Of a DNA stretch of 38,253 nucleotides, positions 2,796 to 29,614 are shown piece after piece; position 1 is the first letter of the stretch, and each line of letters opens with the position of its first letter. Position numbers and translations under genes: made by a program. The notes beneath the pieces are model-generated. The model made no database searches and had not been told where the DNA came from. It worked only from the letters and a program-made list of their open reading frames with translations. The stretch comes from a virus (Duplodnaviria > Caudoviricetes): the IMG/VR virus record IMGVR_UViG_3300020042_000436, positions 1-38,253 of that record. One strand, 5' to 3'.

Positions 2796-3071
2796 ATGCT
2801 TGCTAGTCGTGGTATGGGCGACATCAGCCCCTCAAAAATGCCCGGTGCTAAGAAAAAAGCGCGGCGGGATGACACCGACTTTACGCAGTTCAAAGACGGC
2901 GGCAAGGTCAACGTGGCTGGCAATTACACCAAGCCCGGTCTGCGCAAGCGGGTCGTGAGCCAAGTCAAAGCGGCTGCAACGCAGGGAACCGGAGCAGGCC
3001 AGTGGTCAGCCCGTAAAGCCCAGCTTGTTGCCAAGAAGTACAAAGCAGCCGGAGGAGGCTATCGTGGTTAA
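2796..3071 (+). CDS. Small basic protein with GQWSARKAQ motif (N-terminal half of a DUF5872-like protein)
   Basis: 'NYTKPGLRKR...GQWSARKAQLVAKKYKAAGGGY'. Confidence 0.7.
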   Translation: MLASRGMGDISPSKMPGAKKKARRDDTDFTQFKDGGKVNVAGNYTKPGLRKRVVSQVKAAATQGTGAGQWSARKAQLVAKKYKAAGGGYRG

Positions 3072-3462
3072 AGCAACAGCAGGCGAAAAAAGATTAAATA
3101 AACAGCGGGAGCTTGAATCTGAGAACTTGGACATTGATCAGTTGTCCAAGCAAAACAGTTACCGCTTCAATCTTCCCCGTAAACTGATGCAAGCAGCTAC
3201 GGGCGAGTCCGACTACGGCACTGAACTAAGCCCTGCTGCGGAAAAAGCACGTCAGACCGCGACTCGTGAAAAGTTCCCAAACTACCCTTTGTCGAGCAAA
3301 GGCTACACCAGACAGGATGAGGATGTTCTTCGTGCTGGACGCGAAGCCGCCGCTGAAGAGCGTCGTGAAGCGCGGGGCATGAAAAAAGGCGGCGTGGTTT
3401 CAGCATCCAAACGTGGGGACGGTATTGCCCAGCGCGGTAAGACCAAAGGTCGGATGGTGTAA
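3064..3462 (+). CDS. Small basic protein, putative internal virion protein
   Basis: RBS GGAGG ahead of GTG 3064; C-terminal MKKGG..DGIAQRGKTKGRMV resembles the 2569 protein. Confidence 0.7.
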   Translation: MVKATAGEKRLNKQRELESENLDIDQLSKQNSYRFNLPRKLMQAATGESDYGTELSPAAEKARQTATREKFPNYPLSSKGYTRQDEDVLRAGREAAAEERREARGMKKGGVVSASKRGDGIAQRGKTKGRMV

Positions 3463-5057: not shown

Positions 5058-5240
5058 ATGCACAAAGCGGATTTAAAACAGGACAAGAAAATGATGGCTG
5101 GAGCCGTGCATAAGCACGAGAAGAAGCTGCACCCCGGCCAGCCTATGACCAAGCTGGCTAAAGGTGGCAAGACAAATGCCCAGATGAAAGCTCTGGGTCG
5201 TGGTTTGGCTAAAGTAGCTAACCAGAAAAAGAAAGGTTGA
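5058..5240 (+). CDS. Small Lys/His-rich protein
   Basis: RBS AGGAG; 'AVHKHEKKLHPG..LAKGG'. Confidence 0.75.
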   Translation: MHKADLKQDKKMMAGAVHKHEKKLHPGQPMTKLAKGGKTNAQMKALGRGLAKVANQKKKG

Positions 5241-6208: not shown

Positions 6209-6633
6209 TGTCGTTTACGGGTAATTTTTCCTGCAATACGCTACGTGTAGGCATGACTACAGGCACTATCAACTTTGCAACGGACTCGTTCAAATTAGCA
6301 CTGTACACAAACGCGGCAGCACTCGATGAAACCACCGCCACATACACGGCTGTCGGGGAAACATCGGGCGGCAATTACGTAGCTACAGGTCAAGCGGTGA
6401 CTGCTACGGTCAATTACGCGCTAACCGTCAACGGTAGCGTTGCGTATGTTTCGTTCTCTGCTCCTTCATGGACTGGTTCAATCACTGCTCGTGGTGCATT
6501 AATTTATAAAAATGGCGGTACAAATCCCGCTATTTGTGTATTGGATTTTGGCAGCGACAAGATATCTACCAGTACTTTCGCCGTCACAATGCCTGCTGAC
6601 ACGAGTACATCTGCGCTCATTAGACTTGTATAG
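6208..6633 (+). CDS. Tail-associated structural protein (paralog 1)
   Basis: 'DSFKLALYT...GETSGGNYVATG...ITARGALIY...VLDFGSDK...ALIRL'. Confidence 0.7.
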   Translation: MSFTGNFSCNTLRVGMTTGTINFATDSFKLALYTNAAALDETTATYTAVGETSGGNYVATGQAVTATVNYALTVNGSVAYVSFSAPSWTGSITARGALIYKNGGTNPAICVLDFGSDKISTSTFAVTMPADTSTSALIRLV

Positions 6634-7358: not shown

Positions 7359-7958
7359 ATGGCAACCGGATGGGGCGTAGATGGTTGGGGTGATAACACT
7401 TGGGGCGGTTTTCCATTAGAGATAACCGGGAATAGTGCCGCTGGTGCCGTAGGCACAGTGACTGCATCCGGGGGAAATCTTTTTCCCATTACAGGGGTAA
7501 ACGCTTCTGGTGCAGTGGGGTCGGTAAGTATGGGTGCGCGAACCGTGGCACTTACTGGCGTGGCTGCATCCGGTGATGTGGGTACGGTGGATTTTCAGTA
7601 TGTTGCTTTTTTAGCTGGTGTAGAGGCTTTAGGCAACGTAGGCAATATGCTTGCTGCGCCAATTGGAACAAGCGTAAGCGCCGGGGGTCAGGTAGGGACG
7701 GTAGATTTGATTCGCACAGTTACCCTTACTGGTGTTAATGCGGTGGGTGCGGTGGGCACTGCAATTCCCGGAGTAGGCCCAATAGAAGACAGTGTGTTGG
7801 CAATAGGTAGTGTAGGCTCTATTGCAGCTACAAGCAGGACAATAGCACTTACTGGCGTTTCTGCGCAGGGGCAGGTAGGTATCGCAAACTATTTTTATTG
7901 GTCGTTGATTGATGACAATCAAACACCAAACTGGCAAAATGTGCCAATGACTGTGTAA
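7359..7958 (+). CDS. Tail/fibre-associated repeat protein
   Basis: N-terminal GWG-x3-WG-x3-WG, then repeated (L/I)TGVxAxGxVG units. Confidence 0.7.
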   Translation: MATGWGVDGWGDNTWGGFPLEITGNSAAGAVGTVTASGGNLFPITGVNASGAVGSVSMGARTVALTGVAASGDVGTVDFQYVAFLAGVEALGNVGNMLAAPIGTSVSAGGQVGTVDLIRTVTLTGVNAVGAVGTAIPGVGPIEDSVLAIGSVGSIAATSRTIALTGVSAQGQVGIANYFYWSLIDDNQTPNWQNVPMTV

Positions 7959-15805: not shown

Positions 15806-16201
15806 ATGTCAATGCTCCAAAACCGTTCGTCGCCTAATATTCCGCAAGCCCCTGCGGAGTACGATGTTGCGTACATGAATGCGTTTAGTAATGTCATCCG
15901 TTTGTTTTTTAACACGATCAATACTGTCCAGCAGTTAAATTTAGCAAGTTTAAATTTAGATTTAAAGACGTTACCTACAGATGAAGACCTACAAAACTTG
16001 CGGCTTGGTGATGTCTACAGAGACACGCAAGGCGGCACGCTGCAAACAGGTACAAACATCTTGCGGATTAAGGTGCCCATTGAACTGCTTGGTGTGCAGG
16101 CTACGGGAGCGGTAGGCAGTGTTGGGCCTGTTGGGGGCACAATCACTAGAAATTTAACTGGTGTTCAGGCGACTGGTGCAGTTGGCACAGTGACCCCTTA
16201 A
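15806..16201 (+). CDS. Virion protein following the nozzle (hypothetical)
   Basis: 'P.AP.EYD..YMN.F..VIRLFFN' N-terminus; C-terminal GVQATGAVG repeated twice. Confidence 0.7.
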   Translation: MSMLQNRSSPNIPQAPAEYDVAYMNAFSNVIRLFFNTINTVQQLNLASLNLDLKTLPTDEDLQNLRLGDVYRDTQGGTLQTGTNILRIKVPIELLGVQATGAVGSVGPVGGTITRNLTGVQATGAVGTVTP

Positions 16202-16233: not shown

Positions 16234-17316
16234 ATGGCTGGTGGTGGAATTGGTGAAGCAATGCTGCTTGGTGCAGCAATGGGTGGTGGCGCTGCTGCTA
16301 TAACTGGTGGCGATCCGCTAAAAGGTGCTCTCCTCGGAGGCTTGACTGGCGGTGTCGGCTCGGGTATTGGTGGCGCTTTGGCGGGTGGGGCAGAAGCTGC
16401 TACTTTGGCTACTGCGGGTACTGAAGTAGCCGCTCAAACTGCTGCCCAAGCTGCTGGTCAAACTGCTGCTCAAACTGGAACAGGGGCGGTTATTGGTACT
16501 GGTGCGCCAACAATTGCCAATGCTCAAGGAATTGCAAGTTTGTCTAGCGGTGCGCCAACTGTAGCTAATGCAGCGGCGGCTAATACCGCAGCAACTGCCT
16601 CTGGGGCATCGGGGCTTAACAGCATGTTCCCATCCCCAATTGAAATGTACCAATCCGCAATTCCATCTGCTAGTACAGCCCCACTGTATACACCCCCTCC
16701 TTCTGCTGCTGCCGCCTTCCCTGCTACTGGTGGGACATTTACCCAAGGTATGGCAAGGTTTGCCGATAACCCGCTGGCTTCTATTAATGCTAATCGTTTT
16801 ACCGCTGGGGCTTCAGCTTTAGCGGGTGCTACTGGTGGTAGAGAAGAATTTGAACCCCCAGACCAAACTTATAGGGGGCCGTTAAGCCGTTATAGATTTG
16901 ATCCAGACGTATACCGCTCTGCTTTTGCTAACGGTGGTATTGCTTCATTGGCTTCTGGTGGATATGACCGAGTGGTTGGTGAACAACCTATGTATTCCTC
17001 TAACATGGCACGAGGTGGTATCTCTGATTTGGGTGGCTACTCTGATTACGCACGGGGTGGCCGCATGCTGCGTGGCCCCGGTGATGGGATGAGCGACAGC
17101 ATTCCTGCATCTATTGAGGGTAAGCGCCCTGCGCGTCTGGCTAATGAAGAGTTTGTGGTTCCTGCTGATGTAGTCTCCCACCTTGGTAATGGCTCTTCTG
17201 ATGCGGGTGCCAAACAACTCTACGCCATGATGGACAAAGTTCGCACCGCCCGTACAGGCCGTAAGTCTCAAGGCCGAGAGATTAATCCCAGCAAGTACAT
17301 GCCTGCTTACGCATAG
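16234..17316 (+). CDS. Internal virion (ejection) protein with glycine-zipper N-terminus
   Basis: MAGGG start; GxxxG-rich hydrophobic N-terminus; C-terminal 'GPGDGMSDSIPA...RLANEEFVVPADVV' domain seen in phage virion proteins. Confidence 0.7.
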   Translation: MAGGGIGEAMLLGAAMGGGAAAITGGDPLKGALLGGLTGGVGSGIGGALAGGAEAATLATAGTEVAAQTAAQAAGQTAAQTGTGAVIGTGAPTIANAQGIASLSSGAPTVANAAAANTAATASGASGLNSMFPSPIEMYQSAIPSASTAPLYTPPPSAAAAFPATGGTFTQGMARFADNPLASINANRFTAGASALAGATGGREEFEPPDQTYRGPLSRYRFDPDVYRSAFANGGIASLASGGYDRVVGEQPMYSSNMARGGISDLGGYSDYARGGRMLRGPGDGMSDSIPASIEGKRPARLANEEFVVPADVVSHLGNGSSDAGAKQLYAMMDKVRTARTGRKSQGREINPSKYMPAYA

Positions 17317-17325
17317 GGGGATGTA

Positions 17326-18300
17326 ATGATTATTCCAAACAAACACAGCGGCTATCAAGCGGGTATCCGCAAGTATTACATGGGGGGTGGTGGTAGCGGG
17401 TTTGCACCTGCTCCACAAGCTGATCCATATACGTCTGCGAACCGTCCCGGCTATGTGCCATACGGTACAAACGGGCAGTTCAACCAGCCAATTTATCAGC
17501 CAAAGTATGAAAACTACAATACTGGTAATTCAATGAATGTAAGCCAGTACGGTCAACAACCTTCCTATGGCGATAATTTTGGTGGTTACCCTGACGGTAT
17601 GTACCGTACTCAAACGGCTATGCCCCAGCAATCCCAGCAACCCCAGCAACAAACTTCTATGTTTGGTGGTCAGATGCAAGGGGGAGGTTACGGTCAGTTT
17701 GGCACCAATAACCCGTATAGCCCATATTCAAACACGTTTTTGAATATAAACCAGAATGCCAATCTTGGTACCAACGCAGATAAAATTAGCACATATAAAA
17801 ACTCCCTCGGAAGAGGATTTAACGATCAACAGATACAAAATCAAGTAGCTGGGTTGTTTGGCCAACAATCTCAAAGTTTTATGGATTATCTGTCAAGCCA
17901 AGCGCGACTCCCCGTACAACCACAGCAACAACAAATGCAGCCTTCATTTAACTATCAGCAACCTGCATATGGCGGGGGTAATTTTATTGCCGACCCTGCG
18001 TTGCCTGAAGGTATGGTAGGCACGATGGGTGGTTTTGGATACGACCCAGCGACAGGTAGAGTGGATTTGGGAACGGCTGGTGGAAGTGGACAATTTACCT
18101 CGCAAACAATGCAGCCCCCACAGAGTTTTACCAATACAAATTATTTGCAAAGTCAAGCGCGACCCCCCGTACAACCTGCGCAAACTAACTACGGGCCAAG
18201 CCGGGCAATTGTGGGAAGGTCTGCTCAAATGCGCGGCACCCCAAACGTCATGCGCCGTGCCGAAGGTGGGATTGCTTCTTTGACGAGCAATATTGAATGA
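17326..18300 (+). CDS. Gln/Gly/Asn/Tyr-rich low-complexity protein, putative internal virion protein
   Basis: RBS AGGGGG; N-terminal leader shared with the 18725 gene; ends RAEGGIASL. Confidence 0.7.
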   Translation: MIIPNKHSGYQAGIRKYYMGGGGSGFAPAPQADPYTSANRPGYVPYGTNGQFNQPIYQPKYENYNTGNSMNVSQYGQQPSYGDNFGGYPDGMYRTQTAMPQQSQQPQQQTSMFGGQMQGGGYGQFGTNNPYSPYSNTFLNINQNANLGTNADKISTYKNSLGRGFNDQQIQNQVAGLFGQQSQSFMDYLSSQARLPVQPQQQQMQPSFNYQQPAYGGGNFIADPALPEGMVGTMGGFGYDPATGRVDLGTAGGSGQFTSQTMQPPQSFTNTNYLQSQARPPVQPAQTNYGPSRAIVGRSAQMRGTPNVMRRAEGGIASLTSNIE

Positions 18301-18728
18301 GCCTAACTGTTCGCCCTGTTGACGTTAACCATGTTCAGCAAGTCTGGCCTATGGTGCGAAGTCATATCCAAGAGTCTTTTGATAAAGGTGGGGACTTTCC
18401 TGATTGGGCGGCTGGGTACACCAGTTCGCATGTGCAGTCGTTTTTGACTTCAGGACAGTGGCTGCTTTTGGTGGCAGTGGATGAAGAAGACGCAATTCAT
18501 GGGGCTATGACAATTTCGTTCGTTAACTACCCCCTACACAGAGTGGCGTTTGTAACCACTACAGGCGGTAAATTCATCGCAAATCCAGAACTTCTAACAC
18601 AGCTAAAAGTGTTGGTAAAAGCTCATGGCGCGACTAAAATACAAGCATTCTGCCGGGAATCTATGGTACGCCTTCTATCACGTGCTGGTTTTGAACCGCG
18701 CAATACTTTAGTAGAGGTTCTTGTATGA
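18297..18728 (+). CDS. GNAT-fold acyltransferase-like protein
   Basis: 143 aa with GNAT-like pattern (WLLLVAV...HGAMTI...AFVTTTGG...AHGATKIQAF...RLLSRAGF); the canonical R/QxxGxG motif is degenerate; ATGA overlaps at both ends. Confidence 0.55.
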   Translation: MSLTVRPVDVNHVQQVWPMVRSHIQESFDKGGDFPDWAAGYTSSHVQSFLTSGQWLLLVAVDEEDAIHGAMTISFVNYPLHRVAFVTTTGGKFIANPELLTQLKVLVKAHGATKIQAFCRESMVRLLSRAGFEPRNTLVEVLV

Positions 18729-21463
18729 TAATTTTAAACAAACACAGCGGCTATTCCCGTGACGGCATCCGTAAATATTACGTGGGTGGTGGCGGTGGTG
18801 GCCCATCAACTACAACAGTTAACCAATCCAACATCCCTGACTACTTGCGTCCGCAAGTTGAGTCGTTGCTTGGCGGTGCCACCCAAGAGCTATTTAATGT
18901 AAGAACAAATGCTGACGGTACATTTAGCCCCACGGGTACAAAGGCGTTCACGCCGTATAGCACCAACGTAAAAGACTATGTAGCAGGCTTTAGCCCACTA
19001 CAGCAGCAGGTTCAGAAAAACGCGGCCAACTTGCAAATGCCCGGTCAGTTCAACCAAGCTACAGGGTTTGCAAATGCCGCAGGGCAAGGTGCTATGAACT
19101 CTGCCGCCCAAGGCGCAGGTTATGGCAATGCAGGTTTCCAGTCTGGTCAGGCAGGACAGGCTATGGGGTCACTTGCCGCACAAGATGCGTATAACCGCGC
19201 TAATGCGGCGACTAGTATGGCGAACCAATCTGGTGCTCAAGGTACACAGTCTGGCCTTATGGGCCAAAGTATTGGCACTCAAGGCGGCGCAATGTTCGGA
19301 GGTATGGGTGCTCAAGCTGGTTTACAGGGGCAGCAGTCTGGTTTAGCGGGTCAACAAGTGGGCATGCAAGCGGCTCAACAAGCCGCCGCTGACGCTGCGC
19401 AAGGTAAAGCTGCTGGTTATGGCTATGGCGCTATGGGCGCTCAAGCGGGTGCTCAAGGTCAACAGTCTGGTTTAGCGGGTCAAAATATCGGTACCCAAGG
19501 CGGCGCAATGTACGGGGGTATGGGTGCTGGTTATGGCTCCCAAGCTGCTGATTTATCTAACCAATCATTAGGGTACGGTCAGGCCGGGTACGGTTCAGGA
19601 CAAATAGGACAGCAACTCGCCCTTGCTGCTGCTAATCGTTATGGTGATATGGGCGCGGGTTATGGGCAGCAGGGCGCTCAACTTGGTACGTTGGCGGGGC
19701 AATATTATGGCGGTCAAGGTGCTAACTACGGTCAGCAAGCTGCGGCACTTTCGCCGCAAGCACAAGCGTATGGTAACCAAGGCGCAGGGTATGGACAACA
19801 AGCCGCTCAATTAGCTGGCGGTGCGTTAGGGTACGGACAAAGTGCCGCCGATATTGGCCGTATGGGACTCCGCGCTGAAGCACTAGGGCAAGATATTACG
19901 GGGCAGGCGCGGGGATACGCGGCTCAAGCCGCCGCTGCTGGACAACAGTACGCTAATCAAGCCACCAACCCAAACTCTGTACAAGCGTACATGAGTCCGT
20001 ATCAGTCCGCTGTAACTGATGTCCAATTGCAGGCGCTACAACGCCAAGCTGATATTGCTCGCACACAACGTAGTTCGCAAGCTGCTCGTGCTGGTGCTTT
20101 TGGCGGTGCTCGTCAGGCTATTGAAAACGCGGAAGCTGACCGCGCTTTGGCTTCTCAAATGGATGCAGCGCGTGCTCTAGGCCAACAGTCTGCTTATGAC
20201 AAAGCTATACAGAGCATGCAGTATGGTTCAAATCTTGGCCTTCAGGGGTTTCAAGGCGCACAGCAAGGTCTGGGTACGGCACTGCAAGGTGGTCAGTTGG
20301 GCTTGTCGGGTATTGGGCAGGCTATGGCGGGGCAGCAAGCAGGTATGCAAGGGGTAGGACAAGCTGGTTCAATGTATGGTCTTGGAATGCAAGGCGCACA
20401 GTCTGGCTTGGCTGGACTTAATGCGGCTAATCAGTTCTATCAAACTGGTATGCAGGGGTCGGGTTTAGGGCTACAAGGTCTAAATGCTCAACTGGCTGGT
20501 ACTGCCCAAGGTATGCAAGGCGCTGGCATGGGACTCCAAGCTGCGCAAACAGGACTTCAAGGCACGGCTCAAGGTATGCAGGGCGCACAAGCAGGTTTGT
20601 CAGGTGTCAATGCTGCCAATCAAGCGTTCCAAACTGGCATTCAAGGTGCGGGCATGGGCTTGCAAGGGGTTAACGCCCAGCTTGCGGGTACTGCGCAAGG
20701 TATCCAAGGCTCACAAGCAGCTATGCAAGGGGCGGGTGTTGGTTTGGCTGGCGCAGATCGGGCAAATGCTGCATCACAACTTGCTTTGTCAGGCGCAGAC
20801 CGCGCACTGGCAGGTACTGCTCAGGGTATCCAAGGCTCACAAGCAGCTATGCAGGGTGCTGGAGTTGGTTTGTCTGGTTTAGACCGCCAATTGGCAGGTA
20901 CTGCTCAAGGTATGCAGGGTGCACAAATTGGTCTTTCTGCCGCAGACCGCACAATTGCCGCAGGTCAGCTTGCGCAGCAAGGAGCCAATACGAGTTTGGC
21001 GGGTACTGCACAGGGCATGCAAGGCGCGGGTGTAGGTTTGACTGGTGTCGGCGCACAGCAAGCTGGGTATGGGTTGGCTAATCAAACGGCATCCAATCTA
21101 GCTAATATTGGTACGCAACAACTGGCTGGACAGACTAGCATCTTGGGATTACAAAACCAGATTGGTGGACAACAGCAGTCACAAGAACAACAGTACATCA
21201 ACCAAGCAATCCAGAACTACTCTAACGCGCAGAATGCGCCGATGGATAAATTGCAACAGTACAACGCTTTGTTGCGTGGCTACGCAATCCCCGGCACAAC
21301 CACAACCCAGTATCAGGCACAGCCTACACTTGGCAATCAGTTAGCAGGTTATGGTACAGCCGGGATTGGCCTTTCGCAATTAGCGAATATAGGAGGCAAG
21401 AAAAAAGGTGGTACTGTGCGTTCGGGCATTTCCAACTTGGCTTTGTACAACGCAACGCGCTAA
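18725..21463 (+). CDS. Ejection/DNA pilot-like internal protein with long Gly/Gln/Ala heptad arms
   Basis: 'GGGGGPSTTTVNQSNIPDY', 'VAGFSPLQQQ', central 'YMSPYQSAV...AGAFGGARQAI', extensive repeats. Confidence 0.75.
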   Translation: MIILNKHSGYSRDGIRKYYVGGGGGGPSTTTVNQSNIPDYLRPQVESLLGGATQELFNVRTNADGTFSPTGTKAFTPYSTNVKDYVAGFSPLQQQVQKNAANLQMPGQFNQATGFANAAGQGAMNSAAQGAGYGNAGFQSGQAGQAMGSLAAQDAYNRANAATSMANQSGAQGTQSGLMGQSIGTQGGAMFGGMGAQAGLQGQQSGLAGQQVGMQAAQQAAADAAQGKAAGYGYGAMGAQAGAQGQQSGLAGQNIGTQGGAMYGGMGAGYGSQAADLSNQSLGYGQAGYGSGQIGQQLALAAANRYGDMGAGYGQQGAQLGTLAGQYYGGQGANYGQQAAALSPQAQAYGNQGAGYGQQAAQLAGGALGYGQSAADIGRMGLRAEALGQDITGQARGYAAQAAAAGQQYANQATNPNSVQAYMSPYQSAVTDVQLQALQRQADIARTQRSSQAARAGAFGGARQAIENAEADRALASQMDAARALGQQSAYDKAIQSMQYGSNLGLQGFQGAQQGLGTALQGGQLGLSGIGQAMAGQQAGMQGVGQAGSMYGLGMQGAQSGLAGLNAANQFYQTGMQGSGLGLQGLNAQLAGTAQGMQGAGMGLQAAQTGLQGTAQGMQGAQAGLSGVNAANQAFQTGIQGAGMGLQGVNAQLAGTAQGIQGSQAAMQGAGVGLAGADRANAASQLALSGADRALAGTAQGIQGSQAAMQGAGVGLSGLDRQLAGTAQGMQGAQIGLSAADRTIAAGQLAQQGANTSLAGTAQGMQGAGVGLTGVGAQQAGYGLANQTASNLANIGTQQLAGQTSILGLQNQIGGQQQSQEQQYINQAIQNYSNAQNAPMDKLQQYNALLRGYAIPGTTTTQYQAQPTLGNQLAGYGTAGIGLSQLANIGGKKKGGTVRSGISNLALYNATR

Positions 21464-21472
21464 GGAATATTT

Positions 21473-23254
21473 ATGAGCCTCAATAGCCTACAAGACAATA
21501 TGTCCCGCCGTGCTGCATCAATGGCGGCGATGGCTAAACGCGCCAGTAATCCCCAAGATATTCAAGCCATACAGAAGAATCTTATTGAGGGTGTTCAGAA
21601 CGGTTCGATTCAACCCTACGTTGGTATCCCCCTGATCCAAGACCTGACCAATAAGTTGGCAGAGGCTAAAGCCCAGATGGCGCAAGGCATGGCGGGTGCT
21701 GGAATGCAGCAAGGCCCACAAGGTGTTCCTATTGCCCAGCAGGTGATGCAGCAAGCCGCTCAAGAAAGCCAAGGGGTTGAAGCCCTGCCGTCAAACCTGC
21801 CGCAAGAGTATGCAGGCGGCGGCATTATTGCGTTTGAGAATGGTGGCCCTGTTGAGCGTTATCAAAACACTGGGTTTACGGGCGGCACGGGTGAAAGAAA
21901 ACGCGCTGAAGAAGCACTGGCCAAGTTACGCACCTATGGTTTGCGCCAACGCCAACAAGACCCCCAAGGGTACGCCGCCGCAGAACAGGAAAGTAAACAA
22001 GCACAAGATATTTTATCCAACATGGAACGCGCAATAACTGGTGGCCCTGTTGGAGTAATGGGTCAACCTATGGGGTTTGCCGCGTCTCCTGCTGTTACAC
22101 CCCCTGCTACCCCTGCGGCAAACGGCCCTATTGTTCCTTATGGCCGAAGCGAAGCTCCTCCTAATTTCCTTAGTGGCGCAAAAGCGCCTTCCGCAACTCC
22201 CGGTGGCGCTCCCCGTATTGGTGGCGGTAGTAATTTTAAACCCCCTGCTTTGCAGACATACACGCCAACCATTGCGACTATGCCAGAACGCACAATGGGG
22301 GACTTAACCGACCTTGGTGCAATTACCAAAAATTTAAGCGCGGATAAGAAAAAAGCAATAAGCGATGCTGTTACAGAAGCGCAAAATAAATATGAAGGTT
22401 TTGACGAACCCGGTAACAAAGCCCGAGAAGAGAAATTTGGCAAGCGTGAAGCCGCACAAGAAAAAGACTCAGCGATGACTCGCGCTTTAAACCTAATGAA
22501 TCTTGGGTTTGGTATTGCTGGCAGTAAAGAACGTACCCTTGCAGGTGCTTTGGGTAACGAAGGTCGTCAAGGTATTCAAGGTCTTATCCAAGGCGAAGCC
22601 GCAAGCCGCGCTGCCAAGGACAGGCTGGAAGATGCACGTGACAACTTTGAGCAACAAAAAGTTGCGGCTAAGAAAGGCAACTATCAAGCTGCTCAAGCTG
22701 CGGGTAGAGATGCGGGTAGAGATGTGCAAGAAGCTACTCAAATGGCGTTGGCCGCTGCTCAAGCAGGTAATGCTCAAGGTATCAGCCTGTACAACACCCT
22801 TACGCAGAGAGATATTGGGGCGGCGGGGGTATCTAATCAGGGGCAGCAGTTACAACTTTCAGCAGTTGACCAACAGAACCGTAGTGCGTTGGGTCTTGCG
22901 GGATTAGATATAGAAAGCAAAAAACTTGCGCAACAGGCCGCATCCGCCAACGCACAGCTTAAATTAGGCCAAGAAAAACTCAACCTGATTAAAGGTCAGA
23001 TTGCGGCGGGAGATAAACGCGCACAGGCCGCTTTGGCAAATGTGGAACGCCAAGCCTACGCCGCTTTTGAAACTAGCCAACAATTCCGACAAGCGCAAGA
23101 GCAAGCCAAAAAAATGGCACCAACTGAAGCTCAACGGTTTATGCAACAAGAATGGACAAAATACAGCGCAAACGCAATGCCTTCGTTGCTTGCTGGTCAA
23201 GGTGGCGGGGCTAATGTTCCTTCGTTTACGGAATTAATGAAGGCTATGGAGTAA
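21473..23254 (+). CDS. Internal virion (ejection) protein, helical/coiled-coil
   Basis: RBS AAGGA; 593 aa Ala/Gln-rich; lies between the pilot-like and giant internal protein genes. Confidence 0.7.
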   Translation: MSLNSLQDNMSRRAASMAAMAKRASNPQDIQAIQKNLIEGVQNGSIQPYVGIPLIQDLTNKLAEAKAQMAQGMAGAGMQQGPQGVPIAQQVMQQAAQESQGVEALPSNLPQEYAGGGIIAFENGGPVERYQNTGFTGGTGERKRAEEALAKLRTYGLRQRQQDPQGYAAAEQESKQAQDILSNMERAITGGPVGVMGQPMGFAASPAVTPPATPAANGPIVPYGRSEAPPNFLSGAKAPSATPGGAPRIGGGSNFKPPALQTYTPTIATMPERTMGDLTDLGAITKNLSADKKKAISDAVTEAQNKYEGFDEPGNKAREEKFGKREAAQEKDSAMTRALNLMNLGFGIAGSKERTLAGALGNEGRQGIQGLIQGEAASRAAKDRLEDARDNFEQQKVAAKKGNYQAAQAAGRDAGRDVQEATQMALAAAQAGNAQGISLYNTLTQRDIGAAGVSNQGQQLQLSAVDQQNRSALGLAGLDIESKKLAQQAASANAQLKLGQEKLNLIKGQIAAGDKRAQAALANVERQAYAAFETSQQFRQAQEQAKKMAPTEAQRFMQQEWTKYSANAMPSLLAGQGGGANVPSFTELMKAME

Positions 23255-23260
23255 CTCGTA

Positions 23261-26200
23261 ATGATCCTTACCCTACCTAAAGTTGGCTTGGTTCGCTTTG
23301 ACGACAATATCTCTACCGAGGAATTAAACAAACAAGTAGGGCTTCTTGCGCAAAAGTATGATTTCAAAGTTCCCAAACGGGACGTAGGAATTGGCACCCT
23401 CTTGAAAGAGGGCTTCATGCGGGGCATGGGAGAAACAGGTATCGCTTTGGGTGACACGCTCCCGGCTATGGCTGGGTCTGCGCTTGGTTTTGATGAGTAC
23501 GCACAACGTCAGATGGGTGAAGCCGCTACTTCACGTGCTGAGTTAGAACGCAAGTACCCCACACAGTTCAAGTCGTACACTGAAGTTGAAAGTCCGTATG
23601 AGGGCGCACAATATATTGCGGAAACCTTGGGTGAACTTGGCCCAACAGCACTGACCGCAATGATCCCCGGTGTGGGCGCAGGTGCTTTGGGTAGCAGACT
23701 GGCCGCTCGTGGGGCTATGGGTGCCGCTTTGGAAGCTGGCCCCCTGTCGATGGCTGGCCGTGCCGCCGCTGAGACTGCTGCTAAACAAGCGGGACAAGTT
23801 GCAGGTAAACGCGCAATGTATGGGGGTGTGTACCTTGGCTCGTTTGCGCAAAACGCACCTGAAGTGTTTGAAAGTATCTACCGCGAAACTGACAAGATGG
23901 AGCCGGGTATTGCCGCGCTTGCTGGTGGCTTGTCTTCTGTCTTGGATGCCATCGTCCCCGGCAAACTACTGGGTGAGTTGGGTGGTTACGGCAAGATGAA
24001 AGTCATCGAGAAGGTGGCTAAAGATTCTGGTGCCGCACCAAAGGTGTGGAAGTACATTGCTAAGGAAGCCGCTAAGACCGCAGGGGCTGAAGGTTTAACC
24101 GAGGCTGCGCAAGAGTCTATCAATGCCGCAGCAGAACAAGTTGCAGGTAGTACAAAGGAGATGTTCGGCCCTGAGAACATCCAGCGTTTCAAAGAATCGT
24201 TTGTCAAAGGCGCGATTGGCGGCGGCGCATTTGGTACTGTAGGTGGCACGTCACAAGGTTTTACTGCAAAGAAAGAGTTTGCCACTGCCAAAGAAGCCGA
24301 GGCGTACGTCAACCAACTACGCGCCCAAGAAGAAGCTGCGGGTACGCTCACACCAGAAAAAGCTGCTGAGTACGATGCACAGATTGCGAATGACCGTGCC
24401 CAGCGTGAAGCTGGTTTAGCGGCTGCGTTTGCCCAAATGCCTGAAGATGTAGGCGCGGTATCTATTGCAGCCCTTATGGAACGTGCAGATAACATAAAAG
24501 AATTTAACCCCGGCGCGTATGAACGTATTTACGGGGATATAGATGCCGCTATTGCGGCTAACAAAGCCAAAATTGCTGAAGATGAAACTAAAGCAAAGGC
24601 GCAAGCACAAGCCGAACTTAATAAGGTTGAAGCTGAGTACGACAAAGGTTTGCGTAATAAACAGGCGGGGGCAGCGTTTGCTAAAGCGGAACCTACCCCC
24701 GGTACTGGCGGTATGTTCAAACCCGCGCTGGAACAAGAGCGTGCAAACAAACAAGCTGCTACACGCCAGTTTGCTTTTGGCGATGCCCCTATTGATCCCG
24801 CCAATATGCCGGGTGATCCTGTCACAGTTGACACCCTGAAAAACCTTAAAGTGTCTGACCGTTCAGAGGTTGGCCTGAGTTTGCTGGGTACAGACCTTGA
24901 GACCGTTGATGGTCGCCGCAAACTCATTCAAACGCTAGAAAAACCTAGCTTCACAGGCAAGATTGATGAAGACGCATACGATGCCTTGATCAGCACTTTT
25001 GACCAGCAAGAAGTCAAAGCCGCACGTGCCGAGATGAATGCTGAAACGCTTTCCCCTACCAAACAAAAACAGCAAGCGCAGACCCGAGCCTTTGCATTTG
25101 GAGCACCTGATGCTACAAGACCTGACACACCCGCAGGTGGAGGAAGCCCTAGCGTGGTTAGCGAACCCATCTCCGATGACGCTACCAGAACCGATGAAGC
25201 AACTGTCGGAGATAGAGATGTTTCTACTCAGCAGGATGCTGGAGACGCTACTGCACGAGAAGGACAACAGCCCACTGCACTAGAGCGTGATTACGCCGAA
25301 CAAGTATTTGCTCGATATGACAGCCTACCTGAAGACCAACGAGAAGCGGCGGCGCAACGGCTTGGATTAACCCGTCCTGAATTTATTGAATCAGAAGCCG
25401 CATTTACACGCACCAAAGAAGTTGACGATGCAATTACAGCAGTAACAACCCAAATCCGTAAAAGCAAAAAGGCAACCAATGGCACTACGCCCCCTGAAGC
25501 CCAGCAAGCAGAACCGCAAGAACAAAAAGCAGCAGCAGCCCCAGCAGCAGTAGCTCCCGCACGCGGCACATCAATGCGCCCCGACTTGTCTGGGGAAAAG
25601 CCTGTTGTCGATGCAAAGCTAGGCCAGCGCGGAGTTAAGCTCGATGAACAGTCCAAGGATGCCCGTGCCTACTTTGGCAAGATAACCCCTGCGATGGCGC
25701 TTGATGCGATTGCCAATGACTTGGTGTACCAGCCGACTGCCTACCGCAACTCAAAGATGACGTTGCCTAGCGTGTCAAAACCGGGGACGTTTGCCGCAAC
25801 ACCAGAGCCAACATTTGGCAATGAAAAAGAAGCCACGTTTTTTAAAGGTCAAGGCGGTATCCACGCTAAAAATGCCGAGGCATGGGCACGTTCAAATCTG
25901 TCTCCTGAAGCCGTCTCGTTTTTAGACCAGAAGGTTGCGCAGTACAAGAAAGAAAAAACAAATTCCGATACCATTCGTCGCCGTCAAGAAGCGCAGACCA
26001 AGGTGGGTAAAGCTACCAAAGTGCAAGTGGCTGAAGAAGCCGCCGCCGCTGAAGCGCAGGGTGAGTACGCCCCTACAGAAGAAGAGATTGCAGACGCTAA
26101 AGGTACGAAGACTGAGGCTGGTAAACGTAAAGCTCAAATGCAACGTCTTGCACGTGAGTTGGCAAAAGAATCAAAACAATCATTCAACGAAGATGTTTTT

Positions 26201-29200
26201 GGTGACTTAGATGATATTGCCGACACTGACACCAGCGGTTTGTTTGCTGATGCAGACTTTGCTGCGGTGCATTCGCAGGCTCACCCGGTAGTGCTGAACC
26301 AGTTGGAGAACAACAACTTGTCAGGTGCACTGCAAGCACTGGCGGACAGCGGCTCGTCTAAGACAGCAGAACTCTTTGCAGATAACTTGTCCAAGCTGGT
26401 TGGCAATGTGAACCTCGTGTACGGTGCTGAGAAGTCCATGTACGACCCTGCAACCAACACGGTCTACTTGCGTGATGGCGCTACCGAGTACGAGATTTTG
26501 CATGAGTCTTCACATGCCACCATGTCTCACACGCTGGACAATCCATCGCACCCAGTCACCCGTCAGGTAACCAACATCTTCAACCAAATGAAGCAGGGCA
26601 CTGAAGGAACTTATGGTGCGCAAGATATACAAGAGTTTACAGCCGAAGCGTGGAGCAATGATGCGTTCCGTAATCGCCTGAAAGAATTCAAACCCACTGG
26701 TGAAAAGCTCACGGGTTGGGAGCGTTTGGTAAACGCTGTGCGTCAGTTGCTGCGTTTGTCTCCTAAGACCGGGACTGCGTTAGATGCAGTTGACCGCATG
26801 CTGAACGACATCATCAGCCCACCACCCGAGACACGCACGGGTGAAACTTTGTACGCGCAATCTTTAAACAACCCCAATATTGCTCAAGAAATATTTACGA
26901 AGGTGGGTGACACTATTCGTAGGCAACCCATCATGAACAGCGAACGTGCTGTTGGGTTCTGGAAAGCCGCAGGGGCAATTGGCGCAACGGGTCGCCAGTT
27001 AATGTACAAGGCGTTGAACTTGTCTGCCTTGGGTGACGTTGGCGGTAAATACCTTGGCGATTCGGCTACTCGTTTTGCTCGCACCGTTGAAGAGATGGCG
27101 GGTTACCAAGAAAAACTTCTTGAGGCCATGTCCCCGCTGCATAAGCGGCTGGCCAAGTTCCGGCAAAACCCGGAGTATCAAACATGGTCTACTTTGGTGA
27201 ACGACTCTACCCGTGTGGACGTGAACCCCGAAGCGAAGTTGGACAAGTACAAAGGTAGTCCTGAAAAGGAAGCCGATTGGAAACAACTTCATGGGCGGTT
27301 TATCAAACTTACAGACGAGGGCAAGAAGTTATACCGCGATCTATTTGCCACCTACAAAGAACTCGACGGGGAGTTTTTAAAATCTTTGGAGCGCAACATC
27401 AACTCTATGGTGAGTGATAAAGCGCAGGCCGTGTCTGCCTATCAGAAGATTTTATTTGAGTTGAGCACTGTGCGCATTGACCACTACGCACCGCTGTTCC
27501 GTGAAGGCACGTTCTGGATGCAGTACGACATCAACGGTGAGAATAAGAAAGAGACTTTTGAGTCCGAGGCTGAACGTAACTTTGCGCGTAAACAACTGGA
27601 AGCCAAAGGTGCCACGAACATTGACGTTTACTCACGTGCAGACCAACTGACGACTAAGACAGTACCGTCTGGCACTATGTTGGCCGACATCATGAAGATC
27701 ATGAAAGACAACCAAGTTGGTGATACCGCAATTGATGACTTAATACAACTTGTTGTCAAGGCCATGCCAGAGGCCAGCATCTTGAAGAGCCGCCAGAAAA
27801 GAACAGGTATTGGTGGCTACATTGATAACGCCGCATTTGTGTTTGACCGTGTGAGCAGCAACACTTCACGTCAGTTGGCCCGGATGCAGTATGGCCCCGA
27901 ATTACAGCGCATTATGGGAGAAATGGAAGCGACGGTTACCGCTGCCCGAGGTGACGTTAATACCTACGGTGGTGAACTTATCAAAGAGTTTGAGGGTCGC
28001 CGTGGTTTTGTAATGAAGCCTACTATTAGTTCGCTTGCTCAGTTTGCGAGTTCTTCCGCGTTCTACTACAACCTCGCGGGTAATGTTTCTTCCGCTGTAA
28101 TCAACACCCTGCAAACTCCTTTGGTCGTCTTCCCGCAACTCGGTGGTGAGTATGGGTTTAAAAACTCGTACGCGGCGTTGAAGAACGCCATGAAGTTCTA
28201 CACGAGCAGTGGTTACTCAAGAGATATTACTGAGTTGACAGGTGAGGTTAGCAATCAAAAGGCCATGCTCTCTATTGAGAACTCGGTCAACAACGGGAAA
28301 GCCCCTCAATACGCTGGACTCATCGGGGCTATGAAAGACCGTGGGCTGTTGACTACCTCCACTGCGCGTGACGCATTAAGTTCTGAGAACGACAATACAT
28401 CGAGCTACGGCAGCACAAACAAACTTGCACGCCAAACTGCGTTGGTGGGTTCTTTTATGTTTCATCATGCCGAGCGCATGAACCGTGAGATCACAGCCGT
28501 TGCCGCCTATGATTTGGAAATGGGCAAGCTCAAGAACTCTAACTTGAGTGAAGCTGAGAAACAAACCAAAGCAATTAATAAAGCCCTTGCATTTGTGGAG
28601 TACGCGCACGGTGCAGGTAGTACGCTCTCCGGGCCAAGCCTCGGTCAGGGTGACATAGGAAAAGTTTTGATGGTGTTCAAGCGGTTTGCGTTCAGCATGT
28701 ACTACATGTTGTTTGACACCATGATGCGTTCGCTCCCTATCAAAAACGCAACAGGCGAAGAACGTATAGCAATTAAAGCGGCCCAACGTCAACTTGTTGG
28801 CGTGTACGGTATGGCTGCAATCTTTGCGGGTATTAAAGGTATACCTCTGTACTGGGTTGCTGAGTTAGCCTACAACATGTTCCAAGACAAAGACGATGAC
28901 GATTTTGATACCGTTATGCGTGGGTTCCTTGGCGATCTGCCGTTCAAAGGCCCGGTCAATTACCTTACCAACCTGAGTATTGCTGACCGTGTGGGCTGGA
29001 CAGATTTATTGTGGCGTGAACAAAAAGGTAGCAAGGCTGATGCAAGTGCGGTTGCCCAATTTTTAGAAACGCTTGGGGGTGCGCCAGTCTCTATTATTGA
29101 CAGCATCTTGCGGGGTAAAGACCTGATTGCCGAAGGCCAGTATGAACGTGGCATTGAGGCTGTGTTACCTATCGGTCTCCGCAATGTTTTGAAAGGCTAC

Positions 29201-29614
29201 CGTTATGCTACCGAAGGCGCAAACACTCTACGTGGTGATACCGTTGGAGACGTGAATGGCGCTAACGCCGCTATGCAAGTACTTGGCTTTGCACCTGCTG
29301 ACTTGATGAAGCAGTACGAAGAAAATGCGTACATGACCGAGAAGGGTAAGGCCATCAACGATATAAAGAAAAACTCGCTCAAGAAATACTACGCAGCGAT
29401 GCGTGAAGGCGACTATGACGGCATGATGGATGCACGTGAGAAGTTGTTTGAGCTTGGTGCTAAGTACCCTGACCTGAAGATCAGTGAAAACACAATCTCG
29501 CAGTCGGTGAAAGCTCGTGACCGTATCTCAAAAGAGATGCACCACGGCGTGTCGCTTGACCGTAAGCTGGCTCCCTACCTGAAGCAAGCCGCCGCAGAGT
29601 CGTACGGCGATTAA
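23261..29614 (+). CDS. Giant internal virion / large polyvalent protein with a zincin-like HExxH domain
   Basis: 2117 aa, last late gene; glycine-zipper hydrophobic N-terminal region; 'YDPATNTVYL...EILHESSHA...QEFTAEAWSN' metallopeptidase-like motif; helical C-terminal region. Confidence 0.75.
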   Translation: MILTLPKVGLVRFDDNISTEELNKQVGLLAQKYDFKVPKRDVGIGTLLKEGFMRGMGETGIALGDTLPAMAGSALGFDEYAQRQMGEAATSRAELERKYPTQFKSYTEVESPYEGAQYIAETLGELGPTALTAMIPGVGAGALGSRLAARGAMGAALEAGPLSMAGRAAAETAAKQAGQVAGKRAMYGGVYLGSFAQNAPEVFESIYRETDKMEPGIAALAGGLSSVLDAIVPGKLLGELGGYGKMKVIEKVAKDSGAAPKVWKYIAKEAAKTAGAEGLTEAAQESINAAAEQVAGSTKEMFGPENIQRFKESFVKGAIGGGAFGTVGGTSQGFTAKKEFATAKEAEAYVNQLRAQEEAAGTLTPEKAAEYDAQIANDRAQREAGLAAAFAQMPEDVGAVSIAALMERADNIKEFNPGAYERIYGDIDAAIAANKAKIAEDETKAKAQAQAELNKVEAEYDKGLRNKQAGAAFAKAEPTPGTGGMFKPALEQERANKQAATRQFAFGDAPIDPANMPGDPVTVDTLKNLKVSDRSEVGLSLLGTDLETVDGRRKLIQTLEKPSFTGKIDEDAYDALISTFDQQEVKAARAEMNAETLSPTKQKQQAQTRAFAFGAPDATRPDTPAGGGSPSVVSEPISDDATRTDEATVGDRDVSTQQDAGDATAREGQQPTALERDYAEQVFARYDSLPEDQREAAAQRLGLTRPEFIESEAAFTRTKEVDDAITAVTTQIRKSKKATNGTTPPEAQQAEPQEQKAAAAPAAVAPARGTSMRPDLSGEKPVVDAKLGQRGVKLDEQSKDARAYFGKITPAMALDAIANDLVYQPTAYRNSKMTLPSVSKPGTFAATPEPTFGNEKEATFFKGQGGIHAKNAEAWARSNLSPEAVSFLDQKVAQYKKEKTNSDTIRRRQEAQTKVGKATKVQVAEEAAAAEAQGEYAPTEEEIADAKGTKTEAGKRKAQMQRLARELAKESKQSFNEDVFGDLDDIADTDTSGLFADADFAAVHSQAHPVVLNQLENNNLSGALQALADSGSSKTAELFADNLSKLVGNVNLVYGAEKSMYDPATNTVYLRDGATEYEILHESSHATMSHTLDNPSHPVTRQVTNIFNQMKQGTEGTYGAQDIQEFTAEAWSNDAFRNRLKEFKPTGEKLTGWERLVNAVRQLLRLSPKTGTALDAVDRMLNDIISPPPETRTGETLYAQSLNNPNIAQEIFTKVGDTIRRQPIMNSERAVGFWKAAGAIGATGRQLMYKALNLSALGDVGGKYLGDSATRFARTVEEMAGYQEKLLEAMSPLHKRLAKFRQNPEYQTWSTLVNDSTRVDVNPEAKLDKYKGSPEKEADWKQLHGRFIKLTDEGKKLYRDLFATYKELDGEFLKSLERNINSMVSDKAQAVSAYQKILFELSTVRIDHYAPLFREGTFWMQYDINGENKKETFESEAERNFARKQLEAKGATNIDVYSRADQLTTKTVPSGTMLADIMKIMKDNQVGDTAIDDLIQLVVKAMPEASILKSRQKRTGIGGYIDNAAFVFDRVSSNTSRQLARMQYGPELQRIMGEMEATVTAARGDVNTYGGELIKEFEGRRGFVMKPTISSLAQFASSSAFYYNLAGNVSSAVINTLQTPLVVFPQLGGEYGFKNSYAALKNAMKFYTSSGYSRDITELTGEVSNQKAMLSIENSVNNGKAPQYAGLIGAMKDRGLLTTSTARDALSSENDNTSSYGSTNKLARQTALVGSFMFHHAERMNREITAVAAYDLEMGKLKNSNLSEAEKQTKAINKALAFVEYAHGAGSTLSGPSLGQGDIGKVLMVFKRFAFSMYYMLFDTMMRSLPIKNATGEERIAIKAAQRQLVGVYGMAAIFAGIKGIPLYWVAELAYNMFQDKDDDDFDTVMRGFLGDLPFKGPVNYLTNLSIADRVGWTDLLWREQKGSKADASAVAQFLETLGGAPVSIIDSILRGKDLIAEGQYERGIEAVLPIGLRNVLKGYRYATEGANTLRGDTVGDVNGANAAMQVLGFAPADLMKQYEENAYMTEKGKAINDIKKNSLKKYYAAMREGDYDGMMDAREKLFELGAKYPDLKISENTISQSVKARDRISKEMHHGVSLDRKLAPYLKQAAAESYGD

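Follow-up and report, generated by a model that had tools for sequence, protein, structure and literature searches.

The 38,253-base stretch analysed here (the window) is a virus record, IMGVR_UViG_3300020042_000436, with capsid, SU10-type adaptors, tail fibres and lysis genes, and five genes for internal-protein-like products form one block in it. One of these, 18297 (genes are named by their first position), is predicted to encode a protein with the fold of GCN5-related N-acetyltransferases (GNAT) and stands directly before the ejection gene 18725. Both 18725 and the gene preceding 18297, 17326, start with a similar leader that runs into a stretch of glycines. We lean towards reading this block as a podovirus-type ejection cassette, in which 18297 matures ejection proteins before packaging and the leader is an optional element, probably trimmed by the host, that does not steer the GNAT.

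Protein 18297 is predicted to be a single alpha/beta GNAT fold, in agreement with the original prediction, which had called it GNAT-like. Its AlphaFold (AF2) model has a mean predicted local distance difference test (pLDDT) score of 92, the top Foldseek matches in the Protein Data Bank (PDB) are all single-domain GNATs (best E 8e-9), and comparison with VIA gave Z 12.2 and a root-mean-square deviation of 2.7 over 129 residues. The nearest solved folds found by the two tools are small-molecule and N-terminal acetyltransferases. The 18297 profile matched PDB sequences at E>=0.16 only. Homologues numbered 729 in one search and 318 representatives in another, and among the 136 members of the family alignment 6 match PF00583 and 18 match phrog_1249 'acetyltransferase'; a locus search using a distant 18297 homologue found nothing. 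The canonical coenzyme A (CoA) pyrophosphate motif R/Q-x-x-G-x-G/A after strand 4 occurs in 0 of the 136 member sequences, which have GG[KR] instead, and the CoA-loop region is about 5 residues shorter than that of 1vkc in a weak hidden Markov model alignment. Because the motif is missing, the donor may not be CoA, or 18297 may not be catalytic. G91, G111, T113, R125 and L126 are near-invariant, R120 and S122 are frequent, and four of these (G91, R120, S122, R125) map to the fold's donor-binding region. According to a review, GNATs that use charged tRNA or acyl-acyl carrier protein (acyl-ACP; HlyC) lack the canonical CoA loop as well. The HlyC-type toxin-activating acyltransferases and the Leu/Phe-tRNA transferases are GNAT folds that resemble 18297 in this shared absence only (PMC8953716); neither is among the listed top structural matches, and HlyC acylates internal lysines.

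The position of 18297 is that of internal virion protein (IVP) A in podoviruses, a small acetyltransferase-fold gene directly before an ejection gene of IVP-B type. The ejection-protein context, already proposed from the window, was borne out by the shorter 18725 orthologues, 6 of the first 9 tested of which match phrog_4287 'DNA ejection protein'. At L051, L060 and L063 (locus identifiers), an 18297 homologue of 38-40% identity precedes a phrog_598 protein (the P22 gp7 family), with a phrog_578 gene (labelled head closure Hc3, like P22 gene 10) upstream of the homologue at L051 and L063. Published descriptions call T7 IVP-A acetyltransferase-like, together with its syntenic counterparts in P22, epsilon15 and most phiRIO-1-like phages (PMC4819975); the IVP-A genes are non-structural and lie directly before IVP-B, which is gp7 in P22 (Hardies et al. 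2016, PMC4819975), and phiRIO-1 has an alternative family, gp39, in place of IVP-A (PMC4819975). GNATs are also described, with no tested function, in cobaviruses, beside IVPs, and in pelagiphages (PMC6775973, PMC8477408). Pfam P22_gp7 had no match in 18 ejection-protein orthologues, and the pairwise comparison of the L051 orthologue with P22 gp7 was marginal (E 0.013). Two further loci (L049:4701-5396 and L050) have a Gly-start ejection-like gene before the GNAT and, after it, a gene for a metal-dependent hydrolase (PF10118, E 1e-37).

A different protein takes this place in some relatives. Three leader loci with full flanks and without a GNAT have a protein of 150-170 residues directly before the ejection gene. 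This substitute belongs to phrog_21390 (function-unknown label, 1286 homologues), and across 54 sequences its WDDxxD.D cluster, of a kind that metal-binding enzymes typically have, is invariant. The DDxxD protein has no match in the window. A GNAT was present in the locus for 7 of 69 distinct DDxxD cases. With positive controls detected in both directions, no match to the 18297 family was found in eight near-complete DDxxD genomes picked from GNAT-less loci, and no DDxxD match in eight GNAT genomes that were at least 90% complete. PF00583 was also missing from five of the eight DDxxD genomes, and one genome carries both the GNAT and the DDxxD protein. The ejection protein bears a leader in 49 of 50 DDxxD cases versus 46 of 63 GNAT-only cases (Fisher p 2e-4, cases not independent). 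The structure model of the DDxxD protein is all-alpha (pLDDT 91.6) and had no Foldseek match at E<=0.001; VIA scores stayed at Z <=7.5, below the tool's trust level, with all 28 of the listed rows aligning at least 120 residues being isoprenoid-synthase folds. The predicted alternation of an acyltransferase fold with a prenyltransferase-like fold before one substrate hints at a hydrophobic tag, for which it is the best, though indirect, argument. Loci at which the phrog_21390 gene immediately precedes the ejection gene, with or without a GNAT, are L021:4563-5018, L019, L081, L117, L247, L290 and L234-L313.

The absence of the canonical CoA motif from all 136 members would also suit a non-catalytic assembly chaperone that loads the ejection protein into proheads, with the DDxxD protein as an alternative binder. 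T7 IVP-A has been classed as a non-structural protein that acts in assembly, a third, unrelated family replaces it in phiRIO-1 (both PMC4819975), and P22 gp7 is at least partly unblocked (PMC8402733). Such a chaperone is nevertheless unlikely, as near-invariant G91 and R125 and frequent R120 and S122 are kept at the donor-binding region, the DDxxD protein keeps its invariant cluster of metal-binding type, and two enzyme folds in one slot would be odd for a mere binder. We are also doubtful that 18297 is an ordinary short-chain acetyl- or aminoacyl-transferase, working on Ser, Gly or Ala N-termini or on virion or host lysines and having no lipid role. The nearest folds, the Ser-starting orthologues described below, which suit N-terminal acetylation, and the loss of the CoA loop reported for tRNA-using GNATs speak for it, but the CoA motif is absent here, and replacement by an isoprenoid-synthase-like fold would go unexplained.

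We confirmed that the two leaders (Table 1) share 15 of 20 residues and stand before Gly runs on proteins with no other significant similarity. After its Gly run, 18725 continues into a conserved segment of the type PTxTTVNQSNIPxWLRPQVE. The 19-nt repeat reported before is exact and is the longest exact match between the two leader regions; a search for its pattern that tolerated up to 2 mismatches gave two hits in the window and 0 in 100 shuffles. The codons of leaders A and B differ by four synonymous changes (ATT/ATA, GGT/GGC, CGC/CGT, AAG/AAA), four non-synonymous changes and one inserted codon. The synonymous changes had been taken as evidence for selection on the peptide; they are present, and on their own they are a weak sign of it, the stronger evidence being the family-wide ratio given below. 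Of 69 leaders compared, leader B lies closest to leader A, and the sequences suggest local copying between the two on top of an old leader family. A one-off recent duplication is ruled out by 63 distinct viral copies of the leader. The ribosome-binding-site-like stretches AGGGGGA and GAGGT and the ATGA overlaps at both ends of the GNAT gene (18297-18300 and 18725-18728) were found as first described. Start codons that could give short isoforms do lie directly ahead of the Gly runs (ATG 17380 and GTG 18782). Such isoforms are unlikely, because a start-like codon ahead of GG occurs in 3 of 50 family members, two of the three being the window's own, and because no Shine-Dalgarno-like stretch is found in the sequence upstream of either codon.

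The leader was searched for with a DNA pattern covering its first ten codons only, which gave 82 matches, 63 of them distinct. GG follows at residues 16-32 in 55 of the 63 copies. A GNAT is in the locus for 50 of the 63, and for 34 of the 37 with 3.5 kb on both sides, in line with the co-occurrence expected from the window. The leader heads orthologues of 16234, 17326 or 18725, varying by phage, on up to three genes. The window's 16234 starts directly with MAGGG, as noted earlier; this start is not general, and orthologues begin with MAMGG, MADGG, MDGG or MGTG, or bear the leader (L016, L029, L032 and L038). Outside the codons of the search motif, the non-synonymous over synonymous differences per site (pN/pS) were 0.13/0.56 and 0.05/0.71 in two leader families (pairs not independent). 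By this codon pattern, the leaders are translated and constrained by purifying selection.

The leader is a mobile, optional and swappable module. Among 49 distinct N-termini of 18725 orthologues at GNAT loci, a count covering loci with a recognised 18725-orthologue motif after the GNAT, 18 were leaderless, 5 had the window-type leader and 26 had leaders of four other types. Mapped on a GNAT tree of 47 rows, the leader switches state 12 times or more, the window-type leader taking 5 changes for 5 rows, and near-identical GNATs differ in leader state (L013/L014; L004/L007/L011). The second residue of the 18 leaderless proteins is Ser in 12, Gly in 4, Asp in 1 and Ala in 1, and the leader also precedes non-Gly starts (DP.., TG.. 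and KG..). Since the leader is lost or swapped beside near-identical GNATs, and since leaderless starts are mostly Ser and some leader-borne starts are not Gly, the system is neither leader-directed nor Gly-specific, contrary to the original prediction. It is thus very unlikely that the leader recruits the GNAT in the manner of RiPPs (peptides made on ribosomes and modified after translation), is then removed, and exposes a Gly that is fatty-acylated as by N-myristoyltransferase. The co-occurrence (50/63; 34/37 with full flanks), the Gly stretch in 55/63 and the GNAT fold would fit such a scheme, yet the leader is neither required for nor tied to the enzyme, being absent in 18 of 49 cases, replaced by unrelated leaders in others, and present also at DDxxD loci without an 18297-type GNAT. 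Acylation of Gly is further opposed by the Ser starts (12/18), the single 143-aa domain and the sequenceable mature end of the P22 protein. The 'leader-directed' part of the earlier model is therefore largely refuted. At L079, L086 and L122, the window-type leader is followed by KGG or KGA starts, like those of mature P22 gp7 (KGGKG).

A larger N-terminal module, GRxGDTxLAHxN...GTINPxTGLxE, had 499 viral matches and usually ends in two aromatic residues. It is found at L066:7405-8313 (Venkman gp46), L007, L014 and L154-L233, and in Venkman, a cultured Methylophilales phage, it stands ahead of the Gly run in the ejection protein whose gene comes after that of the GNAT (gp47). It was rejected as a further Gly-exposing leader, with GG coming next in only 6 of 63.

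Leaders of several unrelated families share their junction. In 76 distinct leaders of 16-33 residues, the last residue before the Gly-rich stretch was hydrophobic in all 76 (shuffle mean 53.7, maximum 64; the shuffle comparison ignores kinship), and a common hydrophobic-then-Gly junction would suit a shared cleavage site. The precedent is P22 gp7, from which 20 residues are removed by the host OpdA; deletion of this leader leaves about 60% of the burst, and the protein is packaged via residues 21-154, after cleavage (PMC8402733, PMC4992974). Mature gp7 was N-terminally sequenced as KGGKG (PMC8402733). The window has the same arrangement of a dispensable leader of about 20 residues (19 and 20 here) before a Gly-rich start, and by analogy with P22 and by the junction rule the leader removal originally proposed is plausible. 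No protease-like gene was recognised between the terminase and capsid genes of the relative G002, the rest of whose genome was not searched, and a host enzyme is therefore favoured. A capsid-targeting role of the leader, like that of the T4 internal-protein N-terminal peptide, with removal at head maturation and a separate GNAT, might be suggested by the same leader on up to three internal-protein genes and by the ten N-terminal residues of T4 IpIII that suffice for packaging (PMC8402733), but it is highly improbable given the common leaderless orthologues, the several unrelated leaders that serve, the absence of a recognised protease-like gene in the G002 head module and the packaging of P22 gp7 through residues 21-154 after cleavage (PMC8402733, PMC4992974).

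Under the maturation reading that we prefer, the leader would quite probably be cut at the hydrophobic residue or right behind it, which would leave a small-residue N-terminus (Gly, Ser, Ala or Asp), the same that leaderless orthologues would get by Met removal. We see an even chance that a catalytic GNAT then acts on the IVP-B-type protein, altering its N-terminal region and recognising the mature part, not the leader. More tentatively, and as a whole less likely than not, the group added might be hydrophobic, an acyl chain whose donor is not CoA but, for instance, acyl-ACP, with a prenyl group functionally replacing the acyl chain where the DDxxD protein holds the slot. Stated generally, the first ejection protein of short-tailed phages might receive a lipid tag near its new N-terminus once its swappable leader has been trimmed by a host peptidase, a dedicated phage enzyme in the IVP-A slot adding a fatty acyl chain (the GNAT) or, in sister phages, a prenyl chain (a mini DDxxD enzyme), which is possible and for now less than probable. 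The missing CoA motif and the exchange between GNAT and DDxxD protein argue for some hydrophobic transfer, and the hydrophobic last residue of unrelated leaders (76 of 76) likewise leaves room for a lipid tag.

Several points weigh against this reading. Leader cleavage and modification are both inferred steps, and the missing CoA motif fits a non-catalytic protein too. No match to PF11090 or PF11039 was found in the 136 family members, and hhalign of the 18297 profile against single P22 gp14 and T7 gp13 sequences, a weak test, found nothing. The leaders have no sequence in common with that of P22 gp7, whose cleavage follows Glu and not a hydrophobic residue, and the sequenced mature gp7 must be at least partly unblocked. 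The window-type leader is only weakly selected in its second half (pN/pS 0.38/0.67, pairs not independent). An N-acyl anchor may not be needed, as the mature N-terminus of P22 gp7 could be sequenced (PMC8402733), as T7 gp14 made recombinantly forms pores in bilayers and shows this pore activity in vitro (PMC8954989), and as bilayers also acquire channels from recombinant N4 gp52 (PMC13434306).

Table 1. Leaders, repeat copies and genes of the ejection block, in positions of the window.
Feature	Position	Strand	Description	Basis
Leader A	17326..17382	+	19 residues, then Gly4 (17383-17394)	
Leader B	18725..18784	+	20 residues, then Gly6 (18785-18802)	
Exact repeat of 19 nt, first copy	17337..17355	+		
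Exact repeat of 19 nt, second copy	18736..18754	+		
16234	16234..17316	+	360-aa Gly/Ala-rich protein, likely internal virion protein	
Ribosome-binding-site-like AGGGGGA	17315..17321	+	ahead of the 17326 start	
17326	17326..18300	+	324-aa Gln/Pro/Gly-rich, leader-bearing protein, likely internal virion protein	
18297	18297..18728	+	143-aa predicted single-domain GNAT, IVP-A slot	
Ribosome-binding-site-like GAGGT	18714..18718	+	ahead of 18725, within the GNAT gene	
18725	18725..21463	+	912-aa repeat-expanded ejection protein, IVP-B type	
21473	21473..23254	+	593-aa protein, likely IVP-C-type ejection protein	position and synteny alone
23261	23261..29614	+	LPD39-bearing protein of 2117 aa, likely a large ejection protein of IVP-D type	Pfam and PHROG searches

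Proteins 16234, 17326, 18297, 18725 and 21473 have no Pfam and no PHROG match. Protein 17326 varies strongly between relatives, and the length of 18725 arises by Gln/Gly/Ala repeat expansion, its orthologues ranging from 324 aa (L037) to 1723 aa (L006). A motif picked after inspecting the sequences, [FYML][AKSE]xGG, is enriched in the window, with 5 copies in 16234 (0.5 expected), 4 in the open reading frame (ORF) 2170-2559 (0.14), 2 in 21473-23254 (0.36) and one copy in each of four small ORFs that follow the capsid gene (2569-2793, 2796-3071, 3025-3462 and 5058-5240). A related AxGG(I/T)xS(L) stands at the ends of the 17326 and 18725 proteins and is kept in orthologues. The AxGG-type motif could be a packaging or processing signal common to internal proteins. 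The proteins of 7359-7958 and 15806-16201 have similar LxGVxAxGxVGxV repeats, and 16 nt are identical at 6483 and 10030. In the relative G002, the terminase large subunit (L153:2752-5190) seems to be interrupted by an intein-like insertion, within which lies a second ORF. The portal of G002 is adjoined by a GroES-like gene (L153:8398-8826; PF00166, E 0.0014).

Among known systems, the pair of gene 14 and gene 7 in P22 (gp14 is Pfam DUF2824; gp7 is the substrate of OpdA) is like the window in having a small acetyltransferase-type gene before the first ejection gene and a nearly dispensable leader of about 20 residues before a Gly-rich start, and 18297-family members occur between gp10-like and gp7-like genes. 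It differs in that neither GNAT nor leader has detectable sequence similarity, in that the window-type leader is common to up to three genes and exchanged among unrelated leader families, and in its junction, which here is hydrophobic-then-Gly; cleavage, and host oligopeptidase A as its agent, would be assigned here by analogy. T7 IVP-A (gp13, PF11090) and IVP-B (gp14) likewise have an acetyltransferase-type, non-structural gene that starts the IVP block and is replaceable by an alternative family, while gp14 has no leader or Gly run and 18297 has no sequence match to gp13. The gp39 substitute of phiRIO-1 and the phrog_21390 protein are both alternative families in this slot.

Two enzymes from other systems offer looser comparisons. 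N-myristoyltransferase, which acts on picornavirus VP4, is a tandem-GNAT, Gly-specific and CoA-dependent enzyme. The likeness lies in the GNAT superfamily and in the possible modification of an N-terminus exposed by processing; 18297 differs as a single 143-aa domain without a CoA motif (longer or fused forms were not searched for) whose leaderless substrates mostly start with Ser. In ComQ/ComX of Bacillus, the gene of an isoprenoid-synthase-fold enzyme adjoins that of its leader-bearing substrate. This pair could serve as a model for the DDxxD variant of relatives, not for the window; the fold match is weak (Z <=7.5), and there is no conserved Trp at the junction. Our literature search, outside which most subscription journals lie, turned up no publication that describes acylation or prenylation of ejection proteins in phages, and none on the substrate or chemistry of podovirus IVP-A-type acetyltransferases.

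An acetyltransferase-type gene beside ejection genes was already known across podoviruses. The loci described here add natural experiments, in which one GNAT comes with the leader, without it or with another leader, and in which the GNAT before the same substrate is exchanged for a prenyl-synthase-like protein. They make the question of IVP-A function directly testable. If there is no lipid tag, the cassette would be an ordinary P22-like module with mobile leaders. The lipid tag, if true, would add a protein modification new for phages, one that belongs to the entry step, and would supply the long-missing function of T7 gp13 and P22 gp14.

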